DNA of 64,000 nucleotides from Lachnospiraceae bacterium (GCA_017469945.1 JAFUFI010000015.1:51427-115426), one strand, 5' to 3'. Shown: positions 5,701-55,520, counted from the first letter of the stretch. Numbers and translations: made by a program. The notes: generated by a model not told the origin, from the letters alone.

Positions 5701-6739
5701 GTCCAGACTCTTTAAGGAATTTGAGAGGCTTGACGAGGAGAGAAACCACAGCGTAAAGGGAACGGGACTCGGGCTTGCGATCACAAAGCAGCTTCTTGAG
5801 CTTATGGGTTCAAGGCTTGAGGTTGAGAGTATATATGATGAGGGCTCCAATTTCCACTTTACGATCATCCAAAAGGCTGTATCCGGCGAGAAGATGGGAG
5901 AGATCGAAACCTTAGAAGGAAAGGAAGAGGAGTATGTGGCTTACGTTCCTTCCTTTGTTGCTCCGGATGCAAGTATTCTTGTGGTAGACGATACGCCTTT
6001 AAACCTTGCGGTTATCAGAGGGCTTTTGAGGTCCACAAAGGTTCATATAGATACAGGAGAGAGCGGACTTGTAGCCCTTGAAAGAGTTAAGCAAAGAAGG
6101 TACGACTTAATCCTCTTAGACCATATGATGCCTGAGATGGACGGTATAGAGACCCTTGAACAGCTTGGCAAGATAAGCCATAAGTGTATGGGGGTTCCTG
6201 TGATCGTACTTACGGCAAACGCCATAGCGGGAGCAAAGGAAAATTACTTAAAGATCGGCTTTACGGACTATATCTCAAAGCCTGTTTCCGGTAAGGATTT
6301 AGAGGCGATGCTTGTTAAATATCTGCCGCCATCTAAGGTCAGAATGCCGGAGAGCGACGAAGCGCCCAAGAAAAAGTCAGGGGATGAGGAGAGATTTGCG
6401 GGGCTTCATCTTATCGACCCTGAAAAGGGTAAGAACTACTGCGCAGGGGACAGCGAGCTCTACAAGAGCGTTCTTGAGATGTTTGTCGGCGAGTATGATG
6501 CGGAAACAGAGAATCTGCAAAAGTATTTAGACCTTAAGGATTCCAAGAAATTTGTTACTCATGCGCACAAGCTCAAGAGCTCTGCAAGAACCATCGGTGC
6601 GGACCATCTCTTTGAGAAGGCCAAGGAAATCGAGTCAGACGGCAAGGAAGAAAACTGGGATGCTATAAAGCGGAAACTCAGCGCCGTTATGGAACTCTAT
6701 CTTGATGTCGTAATGGAAATCAAAAATAAAATGCTTTAA
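2747..6739 (+). CDS. Hybrid sensor kinase: extracellular beta-propeller (Reg_prop/Y_Y_Y-like) + TM + HisKA + HATPase + REC + Hpt
   Basis: Repeated propeller motifs (GYIWVGT, GVWIGT, GNLWVSS, GNLWIST), YTNLAYGNYVFRI (Y_Y_Y-like), TM helix, SHEIRTP, NLLTNAVKYT, DHMMPEMDG, Hpt HAHKLKSSARTIGA. The start may be ATG 2759. Confidence 0.92.
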   Translation: MVGLMKFFEMGIPGDLNIKRLFKTGAAMAALVFMLYLVLIFKGFSADLYATDYAAEYSGIVYNLENKLGSSEVNCITQAYEGYIWVGTYSGLYQFDGNSFSKLELDENIHSVMCLLPNGRDGVWIGTNDSGLVYYSFRSGETKYYTTEDGLGSNSVRSLCYGKSGELYIGTSSYLSVLSADGVLTTYTGSNDLYYIRKISCRADGTIAVVSNGGTVFIIKDGVITQSFTREEVGESFTSVRYVSNGNLLIGSTDGNIFIGELRGSKVSVTKYREASEVGSTADIFENKNGSIIIAGDNGLGYLDRLGRLVKIDRGDFNNSVCDIFEDYQGNLWVSSSRQGILKLSQNPFKNLFSAAGVSERVVNCVYKKDDRIYAGCDDGLVILNADTGRQITDERFADLSEARIRHILEDSEGNLWISTYSTYGLVKFDGEELTYFNEAENGTNGNKIRLAIELKDKSILAASATGLTYIKNGEVTKILKAEDGLEVEQILCLYEMPDGTVMAGSDGDGIYLIKDGKVVGNIGEKQGLTGLVILRIVPYKDKFFITTGNEIFLYDGEKAVPLHNFPQSNNYDICISSDQKAWVTSSAGVYILSADDLALDDNYIADLLNSARGLNTTLVANSWNYIGEGDELYLCCSTGVKSIQMHEYGVVNNDFDVDVRLVMADDKMIVPDEGGIYEIPSDAKRIIFTPAVLNYSLSNPYVRVYLEGFEDDGIIFGQSELKEVSYTNLAYGNYVFRIQVLDNYQNVVKEKTIVLHKDARLFERPLFWVAAALVLIGILMAITWALAERRNGKIIKSQYLQIEKAKEEAERTSEYKTLFLANMSHEIRTPINTIMGMDELILREDVSSQVRQYANDIYISSDSLLNIVNDILDLSKIESGKMNIVPVEYSSAELFRELGNNLKVKTDEAKLSVILDFDPEIPARLIGDNNRIKQVITNLLTNAVKYTREGNVTFKAQLVSLNNGNAEIEVSVSDTGIGIKPEDMSRLFKEFERLDEERNHSVKGTGLGLAITKQLLELMGSRLEVESIYDEGSNFHFTIIQKAVSGEKMGEIETLEGKEEEYVAYVPSFVAPDASILVVDDTPLNLAVIRGLLRSTKVHIDTGESGLVALERVKQRRYDLILLDHMMPEMDGIETLEQLGKISHKCMGVPVIVLTANAIAGAKENYLKIGFTDYISKPVSGKDLEAMLVKYLPPSKVRMPESDEAPKKKSGDEERFAGLHLIDPEKGKNYCAGDSELYKSVLEMFVGEYDAETENLQKYLDLKDSKKFVTHAHKLKSSARTIGADHLFEKAKEIESDGKEENWDAIKRKLSAVMELYLDVVMEIKNKML

Positions 6740-6753
6740 AGCGGGATTTAGAG

Positions 6754-7923
6754 ATGACAGGTACTATACTTGATTATTTAATTGAATACGGTGATGTACC
6801 TTTTTCGGAGATGCGTTTTACGGAAGTTGACGCGGCAATCCTTTGCAAGTTCTCATACTTTAATTTTGAAAAGTTCGTGCCGGATCTTGATTCGGATATG
6901 CCTTCCGTTTCTTTAAGAAATATTATGCTGATGGAAAATGCGGAGGAGCTTTTGGAAAAGGGAAAGTACAGATCCGTCTCGAAGCAGATGGTCGAACTGA
7001 TGCTGAAAGGAAGAAGATTTCAGGGACTTCGGATAGCTTGCTTTACAAAATGCACCGACAGAGAGAGCCAGACTCAGTTTGCCGCAGTCACGTTCTTTAC
7101 CGGCCCCAGGAGGATGTATGTAGTCTTTAGAGGTACGGATTCATCTCTTATAGGGCTTAAGGAAGATTTCAATCTGCTTTATACGGACCATGCAAAATGT
7201 CATGATTACGCGGTTAATTACTTAATGACCGTAAGCAAAAAGTTCCCTCATAAAATGTATGTCGGAGGACATTCAAAGGGGGGACATCTTGCAGTTTATG
7301 CAAGTATGAATATGCCGCCGGAAATTCAAAACAGAATACACAGGATCTATAGCTGTGACGGGCTGGGACTGAGACCGGGACTGATGCAGGACGGAAAGTT
7401 TAAGGCCATAGAGAATAAGCTATACAAGCTTATACCCCAGTCTTCGCTTATCGGGATGATGCTTGAGGACGACGGCCATTACGAGGTTGTAAGAAGCAGC
7501 GGACTTTCTCTTATACAGCACAATATCTATACCTGGCAGGTGGACGGACGCAGGTTCATCCGGGAAAAGAAACTTGGAAACAATGCCATATTTGTAGAGC
7601 ATACCTTTAATGGCTGGGTTGAGAGCCAGGATGATGAGAACAGAAAGAAATTCATTGACGGGATCTACTCCATTATAGATGCATGCAGTGCGGAAAAGCT
7701 GAGCGATCTTATGAAGGACGGGGGAAAAAAGTTCAACATCATCGTAAACGAGATAAAGGACCTTGACGAGGAAAGCCGTGAGCAGCTTAGAAGCGTATTT
7801 AAGGCATTTACCGTAGTGGCGAGGTTTTATCTTAAAACGGATGTGGGCGGAAATATCAAAAAAACCATTAAACGCGGAGCCGGGAGAGTAAGGCTCCCTA
7901 TGGAAAAACTTAATCAAAAGTAG
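6754..7923 (+). CDS. DUF2974 (Mbeg1-like) alpha/beta hydrolase, putative lipase
   Basis: N-terminal DYL..YGD.PF...F.EVDA.IL, QFAAVTF, VFRGTD, nucleophile elbow GHSKGG. Confidence 0.85.
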   Translation: MTGTILDYLIEYGDVPFSEMRFTEVDAAILCKFSYFNFEKFVPDLDSDMPSVSLRNIMLMENAEELLEKGKYRSVSKQMVELMLKGRRFQGLRIACFTKCTDRESQTQFAAVTFFTGPRRMYVVFRGTDSSLIGLKEDFNLLYTDHAKCHDYAVNYLMTVSKKFPHKMYVGGHSKGGHLAVYASMNMPPEIQNRIHRIYSCDGLGLRPGLMQDGKFKAIENKLYKLIPQSSLIGMMLEDDGHYEVVRSSGLSLIQHNIYTWQVDGRRFIREKKLGNNAIFVEHTFNGWVESQDDENRKKFIDGIYSIIDACSAEKLSDLMKDGGKKFNIIVNEIKDLDEESREQLRSVFKAFTVVARFYLKTDVGGNIKKTIKRGAGRVRLPMEKLNQK

Positions 7924-7972
7924 TATAATTAGGGTTCGATGATTTATTTAAATCATGAAAGGAAGTGCCTAT

Positions 7973-8662
7973 ATGAACGATATTGCAGCCGAACTGCAAG
8001 AACAGCTTGAAATTCGGACTGTCTTTACGGTACCTGTCGGCAAGTGGGAAATACCAATCAGTGAGTCCACGGTAGTCACGTGGATCATTATCGGCGTGGT
8101 ACTTTTGATATGTCTGATACTCGGGACTAATCTTAAGGTTAAAAATATTTCAAAGCGCCAGGCTCTCTCCGAGTTTATAGTAACAAAGCTCGAAGGACTT
8201 GTGGCCGGGATGATAGGAGAGGAAGGAAAAGGATATGTGCCATATCTTTTGGCGGTATTTATCTTTTTGATGTTTTCAAACACCGTCGGAATCTTCGGGT
8301 TCAAGCCTCCTACCAAGGATTTAAACGTTACCGCCGCCCTGGCGATCATGAGTATAATCGTTGTGCAGATAGCAAACATCAAAGCGCGCAACCCATGGGG
8401 ATGGATAAAGAGCTTTGCAAAGCCCATCGCGGTCGTAACCCCCATAAATATACTCGAGCTTGTCATTAAGCCGCTTTCGCTTTGTATGCGACTATTCGGT
8501 AATGTATTGGGAGCGTTCATCATCATGGAACTTTTAAAGTCTGTTGTTCCCGTGGTGGTTCCCGCAGTTTTTTCACTTTACTTTGACCTTTTCGACGGTA
8601 TACTTCAGGCGTACGTTTTTGTATTCCTTACGTCTTTGTATATCAAGGAAGCTATAGAATAA
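7973..8662 (+). CDS. atpB: F1Fo ATP synthase subunit a
   Basis: [20 protein letters not shown] (conserved Arg), [10 protein letters not shown]. Start moved to ATG 7973, which follows RBS AAAGGAAG. Confidence 0.96.
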
Positions 8663-45625: not shown

Positions 45626-46297
45626 ATGAGGTACTTATTTGAAGCAGAATTACAAAAAAAGAACAGCGGATATGCCGTAAACATCCCTTTTAACGTTTGG
45701 GAGGTTGTTAAGCAGCGTGACGCATTTAAGGCTAACCTTGTAATCGAAAATGAGATTGTTCCCTGCGACCTCAATCCTCTTGAGAAGGGAAGATACGAGC
45801 TTTTCTTTGAAAACAGTGCAAACCTTGACCTTAAAGAAGGAACATCTTACGAGATGCTTCTGCATGTTCACGGATCTCTTGCACCTATGGACGGAGAGAG
45901 CCCTTACAGCGTAGAAAATCCCATCAGAAAGATTGACGGTATCGACATTCAGGTTCAGGACGGAGACGGACTTTGCGGACAGACCTGCGTTGCTATGCTT
46001 GCGGGCGTCAGCATCGAGGAGGTTTGCCGTGTTATGAACTGTCAGGAGTGGCAGGCTACTATGGGCAAGCTTATCTCTGCCCTCAACTACTACGGAATCG
46101 ACCATTCCGATATCATCGTTTACAAGAATGATTCGGAGAGCGTTGTTCTTCCCAAATGCGCACTTATGATCGAGAAGCTCGGAAGATTCGGACATTATCT
46201 CGTTGCCTATGACGGAAAGTTCTACGATCCTAACAAGGGAATCATGGAAGAGTACGATTTCTCCAAACTTGTAGGATATCTTGAGATCAAGTGCTGA
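45626..46297 (+). CDS. Two-domain protein: DUF1905-like N-terminus + papain-like (C39-type) cysteine peptidase
   Basis: C-terminal Q...GLCGQTCVAM (catalytic Cys), GHYLV (His), YDP (Asp). Confidence 0.6.
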   Translation: MRYLFEAELQKKNSGYAVNIPFNVWEVVKQRDAFKANLVIENEIVPCDLNPLEKGRYELFFENSANLDLKEGTSYEMLLHVHGSLAPMDGESPYSVENPIRKIDGIDIQVQDGDGLCGQTCVAMLAGVSIEEVCRVMNCQEWQATMGKLISALNYYGIDHSDIIVYKNDSESVVLPKCALMIEKLGRFGHYLVAYDGKFYDPNKGIMEEYDFSKLVGYLEIKC

Positions 46298-51434: not shown

Positions 51435-51587
51435 AATTCTTGATTTCCAAATAAACTGTTAGTTTAACAACACTGGTATCTTAACAGATACTCTGATTGC
51501 TGTAAATACTGTTGGAAACAAGGTATTGGTAATGCTATAATAGTATCATTTGGAAATTACCAATCTATATATTGTAGGGGGACAGTT

Positions 51588-52406
51588 ATGGACAATAAAT
51601 TAATGAAAGTAAAATTAAAAACAGAAAAACTTCTGGCTGGATTGAATATATTGAAAAACGTAGTCGGAGAAGATGCGAGAGTTGTGATGCTTGCACTAAT
51701 TGGACCAAAGTATAATGAGCGGAACGAAGGTTATGTGAGAACTGCATTAAGAATGATAAGCGCTACGTTGGCGGATTTTTGCATAGAGTTGTACGAGGAT
51801 GACGTTGAAATCTGTGATCAAACTTGGGATAACTTCTATATTCCTAACATGAGTCTTTCTGAATTATTAATGATCATAGCGAAAGCAGATAAGTCGGGAG
51901 AGACAGAAATGATCTTTGAGAAAGGCGGAGACAATTTGACTGTTCACGCAAAATTCATGTCTGCAAGCAATGAAGGCGTAAGTATTTCTCATGATTTTTC
52001 TGCTACAGAAGAAAGAGGCAAACATGGAGTGATTTTAGATTCTATGGACAGTGAAAGGTTTAATCTTCTCAGCTATAAAAACGTTTTTTTGGGGGGCTAT
52101 GGAATTGTCCCCATCACACGGACACAACTCATCAGCGAGCTTTCAAAAGGTATACAGGATGGCAATGACACTATCGTTGTTTCAGCAGATATTTCAGCAT
52201 TCTGGCGCGCTTATACCGATCCTATCGTAACATTCACTTTTAATATACAGCAAGCAAAGATGATTTGTACTGTAATAAAGGAATATGAGGCTAAATATGT
52301 GTTGATTTGGGAAATTCGTGAAAAAACAAAGTTTATCAGTGATGACAAAAATAATTTCTACATGCAGTTTACTCCCGGATGCAACGATATTTTTGGAAGA
52401 GGATAA
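51588..52406 (+). CDS. Hypothetical protein, possible two-domain sliding-clamp (beta-clamp/PCNA-like) fold
   Basis: 272 aa; extended -10 TGCTATAAT (51532-51540) and RBS GGGGGA. The clamp similarity is by-eye pattern matching only. Confidence 0.45.
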   Translation: MDNKLMKVKLKTEKLLAGLNILKNVVGEDARVVMLALIGPKYNERNEGYVRTALRMISATLADFCIELYEDDVEICDQTWDNFYIPNMSLSELLMIIAKADKSGETEMIFEKGGDNLTVHAKFMSASNEGVSISHDFSATEERGKHGVILDSMDSERFNLLSYKNVFLGGYGIVPITRTQLISELSKGIQDGNDTIVVSADISAFWRAYTDPIVTFTFNIQQAKMICTVIKEYEAKYVLIWEIREKTKFISDDKNNFYMQFTPGCNDIFGRG

Positions 52407-52428
52407 ATAAGAACGGAGGAAAAATATT

Positions 52429-52725
52429 ATGAGCGCAATAGAAAAAAGTCAGTATCTTTCGCCGGAACATTATCCGGAGATTGGCGGAGATGATTGGATG
52501 TGGAATGATGAATATTATGACGGAGATCCCAATATTCCCCAAGAGGTAATGGATGAAGTTGAAAAAGAACTTGAGGAAATGTTTAAGGATTATCCGAGGG
52601 GGATGGGATTTTGCCATGTTTATTGGCATCATAAAAAACAGGCTCTGGCGGCGCGCGGATATAGATGGGAAAGCCCACAGGATATCGCAAATGCAGATCC
52701 GCATAACAGAATAATATATGACTAA
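52429..52725 (+). CDS. Small acidic hypothetical protein with a GMGFCHxYWxxKK...WxSP motif
   Basis: RBS GGAGG; 98 aa. Confidence 0.75.
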   Translation: MSAIEKSQYLSPEHYPEIGGDDWMWNDEYYDGDPNIPQEVMDEVEKELEEMFKDYPRGMGFCHVYWHHKKQALAARGYRWESPQDIANADPHNRIIYD

Positions 52726-52751
52726 AGAGAGACAGAAAGAGGAATGACAGG

Positions 52752-52976
52752 ATGGATGAAGTAATAATTGATAACTCCTTGTATGATAGGATTCTATCCG
52801 GAAAAAGAATCAATCCCGCTGATTATAAAGCAATACCATACTGGGCGCTTAGTGCTAACAGCGGATATTTTATTTTTGATGACAGACCGGACGAGAACGG
52901 GAAGTATACAGATAATGGCAGAATCCCTGAAAATGCGTGGGATGTTACTTGTATTTATGACGGAGTTTTAGGATGA
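52752..52976 (+). CDS. Small hypothetical protein
   Basis: 74 aa; RBS-like AGAGG/CAGGA; stop overlaps the next ATG (ATGA), suggesting translational coupling. Confidence 0.6.
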   Translation: MDEVIIDNSLYDRILSGKRINPADYKAIPYWALSANSGYFIFDDRPDENGKYTDNGRIPENAWDVTCIYDGVLG

Positions 52977-55426
52977 AAGAACTGGAGATTAAAAAGCCTT
53001 GGGCGGTTTGGCCAACGGGGCGCATCGAGGAGAGAGATGTATATCATCCCCTTGAATATGCGTGGGATTATGACGGTGCAGATGATCTACCGATTTGTTT
53101 TAGAAATTTGAGAGAGCAGCTTCAATCTGATCCAGAATCAGTCAGCACAGATACTAAGCTTTCTAAAAGTCTAAAAGGCGCATATTTATATGCATCCGAT
53201 GCATACACTAAGCAGATGGAGGGGGCTGAGCTTATTCTTGAAGCGGCTAAGGATGAATGCCCTATCGGCATGCGAGAGTATGCAGTTGTATTGCTTGAGG
53301 GACTTGTTTGTGATAGAAATCCTGAGATAGCTTGTAAATGGCTACATTTAGCTGCGAGATATGGAGATAAAAAGGCTTTACGCATTCTTGTTTATTCCAT
53401 GTTTGGAGTTGAGAAACTTGTTGCTGTACCAAGAAAGGAAACTCTGGCAGGAGATTCACAGGGGCGTACTATATTAATATCAGATCTGTTTAATGATATG
53501 GAAATTACTGATAAGGACAGGCTGGTATATTTAAAACTTCTGATTGAACTTTCTGGGGTGCGGAGACCAAGCGGAAAAATCGGCATTCGACACGCTCCTA
53601 CTAGTTTGGATCGCAGATTTATGGGACTATTATTTGGTTATATTTTGCTTGCTAAAAAGATTGACCCCGATTTATTGCTTGAAAAATGGTTTGTAGAATA
53701 TAGATTCGACAAAAAGTTTCTACTTGAGGCTATTGAAAAAGAGCCGCTATACGACGGAGTCGTTATCAAAAATAAAATGACTTCGGATGAGCAAATGAAG
53801 GTAGTTAACGACCTTTATGAACAGTTAGATAAAAAGAAAAAGGAACTGGAAAAGGCAAAGAAAAAAGCAGAAGAATTGAAAAAAGAAAATATTCATCCGG
53901 AAATTGTCGATGAAGAGACAGGGGAATTAACTGAATTTCCCCCTTTGTTTCAAGGAAGATATAATGATTACGACTTATATGATAGTTCTTCAATCTGTAA
54001 CGCATCCAGAGCGGAGTTGATTCATTGGACTTTAGCTAAGGGAAGCGGATGGCTAAGTTGTAACCACCGTGTAAATCCGCATAGTTTGGTATACTGTGCG
54101 AGAACCTTGGTTCGCAGGGCACTCAACAAGGGGCAAGACATTTGTAACATAAAAGAGCGTAATCGCTTGATCGAGGCGATAACGCTGATAATACAGATGA
54201 AGAATGTTAGGGAAAGTAAATTCAACTGTCTTGAAGGTTTTAGAGATAGTAATGATTACAAATATATTTTGAAAGAAGAGCAGGATATATTTGAATTAAT
54301 TGATTCATCGCCAAACAGAGATGAAATATACTATGATCTTTGCAAGCATTTTAATTATAGTCCTCTTAAAGAAAAAGCCGTGCATATTTTGATCGATAAA
54401 TATTGTGATAATTACAATGCTGATGAGATCGCCGGTTTAAAAGACGAGATTGAAAAGAATGCATTGCCCAGAGAGGCTTCATTTCTTCTTGGACTTCGTT
54501 ATGAAAGAGGACTTGGAACGGATCCGGACTGGGAAAACGCTGCGAAGTGTTTTAAGGATGGCAATGGTGGATTGTTTTCAGATCAGTGCAAGATCCATTT
54601 GGAAAAAATAGAGAGCAGCATGGAAGATTTTAACGACCTTAAGAATTCTCTTAATCTTCTACGTACTGATCAGGCTGCAACGGGAGGAGAAGAGATCGAC
54701 AAGCTTGTTAAAAAGGGATTCGATCTCGCAATGTATTTGGTTGCAAAGCAAAAGATGGAGCTTGATCCCGACATAGCTGAGCAGAATTATTATGATCTTG
54801 ATTTTGAGGGAGGAATAACGCTTCTGAAAAAAGCGGCAGAAAAGGGAAGCATTTCCGCTATCTGTGAATTGGTGAGATTATATAAGTATGGAGTTGCAAC
54901 CTCGAGGGGCGGTTATATCTACCTTGACAAAGTTGAGGCAAATAAATACCGGGATATTCTTCAAAGAATAATAAAAGAGGAACTCGGGGTAGTAGAGACA
55001 TCAAATAGGGCATATTCGATAGCCGAATTATTTCTTTCGATGGAGTGGAAGTACGATATAAAAGCGGGAGAGTTTAAATGGCAATCAGTTGAGCCCGGAT
55101 CAAAATATATTGAGGTGAATGATGGAGAGGATTACATCAGCAGTAGTAGCTCACTTTTAGATTTATTCGCATCATCAGGTGGTTCAAGTTCATACATTGA
55201 CGACGATGACTACCCATGTTCGAACAATAACTCTGATTACAATAGCTATGACGATGACCCCGGCTATGGAACCTATGAGGAAGATACCGGCGGTAGCTAT
55301 GGAAACAACAGTAATAGCAGCAATTCAGGTGAATATGACGATTTTTCTGATTACTGGCATGCTAATAATGGTTGGGAAAAGGGACTTTCCGGAAATGCAG
55401 AAGAAGATCAATGGCACTATCGGTGA
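52973..55426 (+). CDS. SEL1-like repeat protein with an acidic low-complexity C-terminal tail
   Basis: GMREYAVVLLEGLVCDRNPEIACKWLHLAARYGD, ASFLLGLRYERGLGTDPDWENAAKCF, LLKKAAEKGSISAICELVRLYKYG; D/S/N/Y-rich last ~90 aa; no signal peptide. Confidence 0.8.
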   Translation: MKELEIKKPWAVWPTGRIEERDVYHPLEYAWDYDGADDLPICFRNLREQLQSDPESVSTDTKLSKSLKGAYLYASDAYTKQMEGAELILEAAKDECPIGMREYAVVLLEGLVCDRNPEIACKWLHLAARYGDKKALRILVYSMFGVEKLVAVPRKETLAGDSQGRTILISDLFNDMEITDKDRLVYLKLLIELSGVRRPSGKIGIRHAPTSLDRRFMGLLFGYILLAKKIDPDLLLEKWFVEYRFDKKFLLEAIEKEPLYDGVVIKNKMTSDEQMKVVNDLYEQLDKKKKELEKAKKKAEELKKENIHPEIVDEETGELTEFPPLFQGRYNDYDLYDSSSICNASRAELIHWTLAKGSGWLSCNHRVNPHSLVYCARTLVRRALNKGQDICNIKERNRLIEAITLIIQMKNVRESKFNCLEGFRDSNDYKYILKEEQDIFELIDSSPNRDEIYYDLCKHFNYSPLKEKAVHILIDKYCDNYNADEIAGLKDEIEKNALPREASFLLGLRYERGLGTDPDWENAAKCFKDGNGGLFSDQCKIHLEKIESSMEDFNDLKNSLNLLRTDQAATGGEEIDKLVKKGFDLAMYLVAKQKMELDPDIAEQNYYDLDFEGGITLLKKAAEKGSISAICELVRLYKYGVATSRGGYIYLDKVEANKYRDILQRIIKEELGVVETSNRAYSIAELFLSMEWKYDIKAGEFKWQSVEPGSKYIEVNDGEDYISSSSSLLDLFASSGGSSSYIDDDDYPCSNNNSDYNSYDDDPGYGTYEEDTGGSYGNNSNSSNSGEYDDFSDYWHANNGWEKGLSGNAEEDQWHYR

Positions 55427-55483
55427 TATATTTTTCTGTTAAAAAATATCTAAACGGTGCGTAATGCATGCGGCATCTTCTTG

Positions 55484-55520
55484 ATACCTACGTCGAGACA
55501 ATCGACGTAGGTATTTTTTT
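55484..55520 (+). terminator. Intrinsic terminator closing the island operon
   Basis: 13-bp stem ATACCTACGTCGA/TCGACGTAGGTAT followed by a T tract. Confidence 0.85.

Follow-up and report, generated by a model that had tools for sequence, protein, structure and literature searches.

A sequence-orphan protein of probable DNA-clamp fold heads a small, apparently mobile cassette in gut and rumen Lachnospiraceae

Bacterial DnaN (Pol III beta) is a three-domain clamp of ~366-380 amino acids (aa), PCNA and T4-type gp45 have two domains, and herpesvirus UL42/UL44 likewise have two clamp domains, in a fold that has diverged past sequence recognition. Factors of the UL42/UL44 type act as a monomer or a C-shaped dimer, form no closed ring and bind their cognate polymerase. 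In T4, gene 45 adjoins genes 46/47 (Rad50/Mre11). Clamp-domain genes of less than full length are found on mobile elements: the temperate phages vB_PaeS-D14E of Pseudomonas (L024:1564-2238, 224 aa, 'central domain') and yong1 of Hafnia (L026:1588-2124, 178 aa) carry stand-alone DnaN-derived genes, whose similarity to E. coli DnaN is confined to its central part (~30% identity to domain II by BLAST) and which sit among regulatory/replication (phage replication or immunity) genes; we know of no reported function for them. Here, a stretch of 64,000 nucleotides (nt) from a Lachnospiraceae bacterium (GCA_017469945.1 JAFUFI010000015.1:51427-115426, hereafter the window) was analyzed for one gene, at 51588..52406 (+), which encodes an orphan protein of 272 aa. 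The original prediction had described a possible two-domain, PCNA-sized sliding-clamp homolog. The open reading frame (ORF) was present exactly as described, and a two-domain, PCNA-sized, clamp-like protein is the best-supported reading, its top structural matches all being of the clamp fold and near full length, from low-confidence models. The clamp fold is considered probable for this protein, as an unproven hypothesis with moderate support from the models.

The main support is structural. Models were made with AlphaFold from the single sequence and from a five-sequence alignment of the family, which contained no clamp sequence, and were searched with Foldseek. For the alignment-based model, each of the top 50 matches in the PDB was a PCNA chain (E from 1.2e-5 to 6e-4, Foldseek probability ~1.0, ~300 columns aligned); 83 matches had E<=1e-3. 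In the viral library (BFVD), viral PCNAs, an Arthrobacter phage Pol III beta and herpesvirus processivity factors were on top; one of these BFVD matches was a partial superposition (184 columns, 4.7 A root-mean-square deviation, rmsd). The single-sequence model gave weaker matches (E>=3e-3), and the top ones were PCNA, 9-1-1, UL42 and DnaN only. The protein is acidic overall (isoelectric point, pI, 5.0), as are known clamps. Invariant K23, R31, K187 and K224 were placed on or beside the four predicted helices, with just 1-2 basic residues per helix in the low-confidence alignment-based model.

Relatives were sought in 5.8 billion clusters and by exhaustive phmmer against 1.84 billion representatives. 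Four were found, P0001 (272 aa, 94% identity) and P0002, P0003 and P0004 (390-409 aa, ~30% identity), so that the family comprises five clusters including the 272-aa protein. Scanning contigs of viral, genome and metagenome collections and searching phage/plasmid records with tblastn returned the same two short-form loci and no further member. Residues 6-262 of the 272-aa protein were collinear with residues 1-252 of the long relatives (alignment A1), which carry an extra C-terminal block of ~135 residues. The 272-aa protein is collinear with the start of the long forms and therefore corresponds to domains 1 and 2 of a three-domain family, without the last.

The predicted secondary structure consists of beta-alpha-beta-beta-beta units in two blocks, which fits two domains each built of two beta-alpha-beta3 units. 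Predicted domain 1 (residues ~5-138, 51600..52001, +) was delimited from the predicted secondary structure, hhalign and alignment A1, and has the order strand 4-11, helix 12-26, strand 31-38, low-confidence insert 39-73, strand 80-89, helix 90-98, and strands 105-113, 116-124 and 135-138; in alignment A1, residues 39-73 are an insert relative to the long forms. An inter-domain segment follows (residues ~139-171, 52002..52100, +), with conserved L150, L161, Y163 and N165, and carries 4 of the 14 amino-acid differences that separate the two short-form variants. Predicted domain 2 (residues ~172-263, 52101..52376, +) has the order beta-alpha-beta-beta-alpha-beta-beta-beta. Invariant positions of the family include K23 and R31 in domain 1 and N219, K224, F249-I-S-D-D-x-N255, Y258, Q260 and P263 in domain 2.

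For comparison with DnaN, a 13-sequence alignment of E. coli and annotated phage clamps was used as reference, and domains were compared by hhalign. All domain scores were weak (P 0.002-0.2), with the alignments mostly in register. Residues 1-25 of family domain 1 fell on residues 1-25 of DnaN domain I (P=0.065), family domain 2 was aligned to DnaN domain III over 77 columns (P=0.007), and the third domain of the long forms was aligned in register to the start of DnaN domain III (P=0.0018). In the alignment of domain 2, two invariant residues meet DnaN landmarks: N219 coincides with N320 ('GFN'), itself near-invariant, and P263 with P363 ('MP'). The N-to-P spacing is 44 residues in the family and 43 in DnaN; N320 and P363 are subsite-II residues of the DnaN peptide-binding pocket. 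The scores exceeded all 60 column shuffles in 5 of 9 domain pairs, and the reversed profile in 9/9. When single sequences were compared with 71 decoy segments of real proteins, domain 1 (both forms) and domain 3 of P0002 ranked 2-4 of 71. The resemblance to beta-clamp motifs that had been seen by eye is to some extent borne out by the register of the alignments to DnaN domains I and III; the standard searches were blank and the decoy ranks marginal. At the level of sequence, the resemblance to clamps is more than nothing and is not significant alone.

The 272-aa protein was unmatched in Pfam, PHROGs, NCBIfam, PADLOC and PDB sequences, singly and as a family profile; the other family members were likewise unmatched in Pfam, PHROGs, PADLOC and PDB sequences. 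The family profile gave no match to PDB sequences, and none of the five family members matched the Pfam DNA_pol3_beta domains or PDB DnaN sequences even at E<=10. Matches to azurin (E 0.33), Cas12f (E 0.55) and Chordopox_A35R (E 0.005-0.06) were taken as chance, and the only PADLOC match, Drt3a (E=0.0034, 14.9 bits), was at chance level.

With DnaN, the family has in common the probable fold, the weak in-register alignments that place N219/P263 on N320/P363, an acidic character overall in the 272-aa protein and, in the long relatives, a DnaN-like length (390 aa) and three blocks. The 272-aa protein differs from DnaN in the lack of a significant sequence match (hhalign probability 1.6%), in its two domains, which are the first two blocks of the 390-aa relatives, in a shorter domain 2, in a non-replication locus and in belonging to an orphan family. 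A replication context (dnaA-dnaN-recF or a phage replication module) was found neither around the window cassette nor around a second cassette, L008, described below. By sequence, by domain number and by context, the 272-aa protein is not a DnaN member. PCNA and T4-type gp45 are closer in size and in domain number, and PCNA was on top in the PDB and viral PCNAs in BFVD (low-confidence models); the differences are a sequence identity of ~10% in the structural alignments (TM ~0.3), the lack of an RFC or gp44/62-type loader nearby, and the bacterial host and accessory operon of the 272-aa gene. UL42/UL44, two clamp domains with a fold beyond sequence recognition, were among the structural matches; no polymerase is linked to the 272-aa gene. 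The short DnaN genes of temperate phages are a precedent for sub-full-length clamp-domain genes on mobile elements, but they are recognizable by sequence and lie in phage regions, whereas the 272-aa protein is unrecognizable and lies in a chromosomal cassette. The mode of action would plausibly be closest to that of a clamp of PCNA/gp45 size, or to that of a non-ring clamp-fold factor such as UL42.

The long forms were found on two contigs, L006 and L007, in a conserved block that contains an SbcC-N-like ATPase half, a 222-aa ORF, an Mre11/SbcD-like phosphoesterase, a 137-aa ORF, the clamp-like gene, a variable gene and an SbcC-C-like half. The SbcC/Rad50-like ATPase is split, with its halves ~4.3 kb apart (L006:1665-3083 and 7421-8170; L007:3-863 and 5897-6388) and the SbcD-like and clamp-like genes between them. 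The gene that precedes the SbcC C-terminal half encodes 180 aa in one contig and 433 aa in the other. The clamp-like gene is the most divergent of the block (72% identity between L006 and L007, against 76-97% for the other genes). This neighborhood supports, by association, a DNA-transaction role for the long forms, and the adjacency of T4 gene 45 to genes 46/47 resembles it. A functional partnership of PCNA with Mre11/Rad50 is documented in archaea (Pyrococcus furiosus, PMC6009593); a similar coupling of a clamp with a Rad50/Mre11-type nuclease is suggested by the long-form gene order, and is known here from gene neighborhood alone, for the long forms and not for the window operon. Among large phages, SbcCD is near-universal and some groups have no detectable clamp (PMC7824862). 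The long forms would most likely serve as the clamp partner of an SbcC/SbcD-like nuclease or of replication machinery on mobile DNA.

The long-form elements are unclassified, and are probably phage or other mobile DNA. L006 and L007 could not be linked to phages: their SbcD-like, SbcC-like and 1386-aa proteins were unmatched in 50,697 phage records and IMG/VR, and the rest of L006 was unmatched in phage, IMG/VR, NCBIfam and PDB collections. Motifs like the clamp-binding motif (CBM) were sought in the long-form neighbors and none was found. A reading of the 390-aa relatives as phage major capsid proteins, prompted by small ORFs and a 1386-aa ORF downstream, was rejected because the neighbors are SbcC-like halves and an Mre11/SbcD-like phosphoesterase, with a weak NT5C-like match and no structural-protein matches. 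Two further orphans were observed on L006. The first (L006:276-1481, 401 aa) has a zinc-finger-like C...CPCC motif after 'RFYIP' and a long P/Q/A-rich C-terminal tail, and resembles T4 gp32-type single-stranded DNA-binding proteins by eye, a likeness that no library match backs. The second is the 1386-aa ORF itself (L006:10520-14680). It has a P-loop-like GSGAGKG, the hydrophobic-DE sequence VWVFDE and, around residue 1030, a short tandem repeat of 'DSDI[PLS]V'; searches of phage genomes and of Pfam, PHROGs, NCBIfam, PADLOC and the PDB found no match to it.

In the window, the 272-aa gene looks like the head of a four-gene operon of closely spaced ORFs of 272, 98, 74 and 817 aa, all on the plus strand. 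A promoter-like site, TTGGAA-18-TATAAT, TG-extended, lies at 51512..51541 (+), and a ribosome-binding site, AGGGGGA, was read from the sequence at 51576..51582 (+), 5 nt 5' of the ATG. The 98-aa ORF (52429..52725, +) and the 74-aa ORF (52752..52976, +) are acidic and without family. The final gene (52973..55426, +), whose start overlaps the preceding stop by 4 nt, encodes an 817-aa Sel1-repeat protein (E=1.1e-6, marginally below the Pfam cut-off), and an intrinsic-terminator-like hairpin with a 14-bp stem and a T-run marks the operon end (55483..55515, +). G+C was 0.37-0.41 in the cassette and 0.43-0.50 in the flanks. The order of the locus is mgtE, groES/groEL, an EAL protein, a HAD hydrolase (minus strand), the cassette, PadR, a DUF4097 protein and rimP-nusA-infB, so that the cassette sits in a housekeeping region of the chromosome. 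Between mgtE and groES, a 223-aa ORF (45626-46297) has a weak DUF1905 N-terminus (E=0.009) and no family above threshold, and is kept in metagenome copies of the locus.

The host bacterium belongs to the gut/rumen Lachnospiraceae; its nearest genome record is a metagenome-assembled genome (MAG) of that family, and gut and bovine-gut metagenomes contain the sequence. In two gut metatranscriptomes, small contigs cover ~51904-52088 at 95-99% identity, which is weak evidence that the 272-aa gene is transcribed. High-depth contig fragments from unrelated metagenomes and metatranscriptomes also fell on an A/G-rich (Lys/Glu-coding) stretch of the Sel1 gene (53831-53865); these probably reflect low-complexity cross-mapping rather than expression.

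The second short-form locus lies on a Lachnospiraceae MAG contig, L008 (also seen as L022/L023), which has just three pieces in common with the window: 51498-52476 at 97% identity (from the promoter through the clamp-like gene into the 98-aa ORF), 52697-52754, and 55119-55465 at 93% identity. The flanks of L008 differ wholly, with an EamA transporter upstream and a sugar-binding protein and two-component system downstream, and no integrase or transposase was found at its cassette. Occurrence in two unrelated chromosomal contexts at 97% identity indicates that the cassette is horizontally mobile. The left edge of the shared cassette lies ~70 nt downstream of a G-rich imperfect palindrome of ~115 nt (L008:9726-9839; GGCACCTGGGGACGGGGTTAGGGGGACATTTTC ... 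GAAAATGTCCCCCTAACCCCGTCCCCAGGTGCC), which is without counterpart in the window. L008 lacks the 74-aa gene; in place of this gene and of residues 1 to ~715 of the Sel1 protein stands an unrelated N-terminal region of ~270 residues with a hydrophobic segment. The two contexts have only two constant elements, the clamp-like gene and the C-terminal ~100 residues of the partner.

This conserved partner tail (residues ~715-817, 55115..55423, +), encoded by DNA common to L008, is acidic (pI 4.05), rich in S, N, D and Y, and apparently disordered. It begins SSSLLDLFASSGG in the window and SSPLDLFASSGG in L008. At its start lies LLDLF (55154..55168, +; PLDLF in L008), whose LDLF agrees with the consensus of bacterial clamp-binding motifs, QL[S/D]LF (bioRxiv 10.64898/2026.05.27.728225), at positions 2-5; such motifs are usually displayed in flexible tails. 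The likeness to QL[S/D]LF clients thus lies in a disordered-looking tail with LDLF, and the difference in the lack of Gln at position 1. Among the ~19,000 residues that the window encodes, L[SD]LF occurs just twice, the second copy lying within a membrane helix. As a putative clamp-binding motif, LDLF is suggestive, with a chance of roughly 0.05-0.1 of arising at random. Its presence in the tail of a co-transferred partner is a hint in favor of the decoy role that had been raised in the original prediction.

In the proposed model, the 272-aa protein would be the highly diverged short form of a tiny orphan family with two clamp-type domains (beta-clamp/PCNA superfamily). Having no third domain, it would have been acquired, along with a promoter of its own, as the first gene of a small mobile cassette in gut/rumen Lachnospiraceae. 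There it may provide a platform on which the acidic [L/P]LDLF tail of the partner docks, or mimic the host clamp towards that tail, with a putative binding pocket in domain 2 (N219, P263) and the inter-domain segment, and the variable body of the partner (Sel1 scaffold in the window, membrane anchor elsewhere) would supply the output. Tail binding is weakly suggested by the motif, and ring formation and DNA loading by the 272-aa protein are conjectural. The statement as a whole, of a diverged two-domain clamp-fold protein of mobile-element origin that receives the LDLF tail of its partner, either as a docking platform or by mimicking a clamp, is in our judgment evenly balanced between right and wrong.

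Several results weigh against this reading and are gathered in this and the following two paragraphs. The tail motif is without Gln1, which is among the three positions weightiest for clamp binding (bioRxiv 10.64898/2026.05.27.728225), and it was spotted post hoc. No clamp loader, polymerase or other DNA-metabolism gene was found in the window operon; no AAA+ clamp loader (RFC or gp44/62-type) was found in the window operon, L006 or L007, where the sole ATPase is of the SbcC/ABC type. In PADLOC-DB 2.0 no anti-phage defense match was found for the cassette, and the three partner proteins were without any match.

The protein might instead be no clamp at all, and be an orphan alpha/beta protein of another or new fold, its Foldseek matches reflecting a generic beta-alpha-beta pattern in poor models; this is somewhat unlikely. 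The AlphaFold models were of low confidence (mean predicted local distance difference test, pLDDT, of 40 from the single sequence, and of 45 with a predicted TM-score, pTM, of 0.33 from the alignment), Foldseek TM-scores were 0.2-0.3 with an rmsd of ~14 A, and Foldseek itself cautions that low-confidence models may yield meaningless matches. No sequence or profile method gave a significant match. The decoy-based ranks were marginal, and domain 2 as a single sequence gave no signal against the real-protein decoys; at ~92 residues, this predicted domain is also ~20 below a canonical clamp domain. No internal repeat similarity was detectable by hhalign among the family domains, whereas DnaN domains show some. 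A generic pattern would, however, have to account for clamp folds exclusively on top, near full length and at a Foldseek probability of ~1, from two models and in two libraries, with an input alignment free of clamp sequences. It would also have to account for in-register hhalign alignments that meet two landmark residues at a spacing of 44 vs 43, and for relatives of DnaN-like length, with three blocks, in a DNA-end-processing context.

It is also unlikely that the gene is clamp-derived and now a functionless, decaying remnant, namely a truncated three-domain clamp of a mobile element left in the chromosome. Such decay would fit the absence of the third domain of the relatives, and the fast evolution seen in the long forms too, where the clamp-like gene is the most divergent of its block. 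Between the two short-form variants, dN/dS (ratio of non-synonymous to synonymous rates) was 0.57-0.75, with 16 non-synonymous and 7 synonymous changes, and was not significantly below 1 (p=0.17), hence indistinguishable from neutrality. The locus also shows recurrent deletions, two of them independent and in the adjacent 98-aa ORF. In L008, this ORF has an in-frame deletion (52471/6>52697) at an ATCCG microhomology, which leaves 23 codons. In a third variant, from a bovine-gut metagenome, a 295-nt deletion (joint 52370>52666, GATC inserted) removes most of the 98-aa ORF and rewrites the last 11 codons of the clamp-like protein, including P263. An empty-site allele, with the flanks joined and no cassette, was sought in four metagenomes and not found. 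Decay is opposed by the 272-codon frame, which is intact in both sequenced variants with the same stop, ribosome-binding site and promoter, and which survived ~70% divergence from the long forms. Any truncation would be old, because no remnant of the third domain was found downstream in the window. Its promoter and the tail-bearing partner accompanied the gene when it moved between genomes (97% identity), transcript fragments exist, and conflict genes likewise typically evolve fast. The selection and instability data would fit relaxed constraint (decay) and fast, conflict-type evolution alike.

The clamp-fold, docking or mimic reading is retained, and it has a bolder version, a self-contained mobile 'clamp plus client' module. 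The two-domain mimic would act as decoy, antitoxin or adaptor and control a variable effector whose LDLF tail would otherwise engage the host clamp; the long forms, for their part, would supply the missing clamps of unclassified elements or phages with split SbcCD. A toxin that acts on DnaN, RipA, is described in S. pneumoniae, a member of the Firmicutes (PMC12795458); the cassette proteins are without similarity to RipA/RipB or to Rosmer components. We regard this combined version as a long shot. Most improbable is the form given in the original prediction, a DnaN derivative minus domain II (I+III) that would form a PCNA-like trimeric ring: the size equals that of PCNA, the N-terminus aligns to the start of domain I and domain 2 bears the N..P motifs typical of DnaN domain III at the correct spacing, but the homologs show domains 1 and 2 to be contiguous, with the missing last domain beyond them aligning to DnaN domain III, and recent derivation from DnaN is excluded because no measurable sequence similarity to it, that of the host included, was detected.

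If the fold is false, the gene is another orphan in an unstable cassette. If it is true, the family would be a sequence-orphan branch of sliding clamps that exists in DnaN-like three-domain and PCNA-like two-domain forms, which would bear on the interconversion of clamp architectures. The long forms could then explain the apparent absence of a clamp in some mobile elements with Rad50/Mre11-like nucleases. Together with the clamp-binding-like tail of its partner, the short form would offer a tractable system in which to study clamp mimicry outside replication, and possibly represent a new route by which accessory genes contact or imitate the host replisome.

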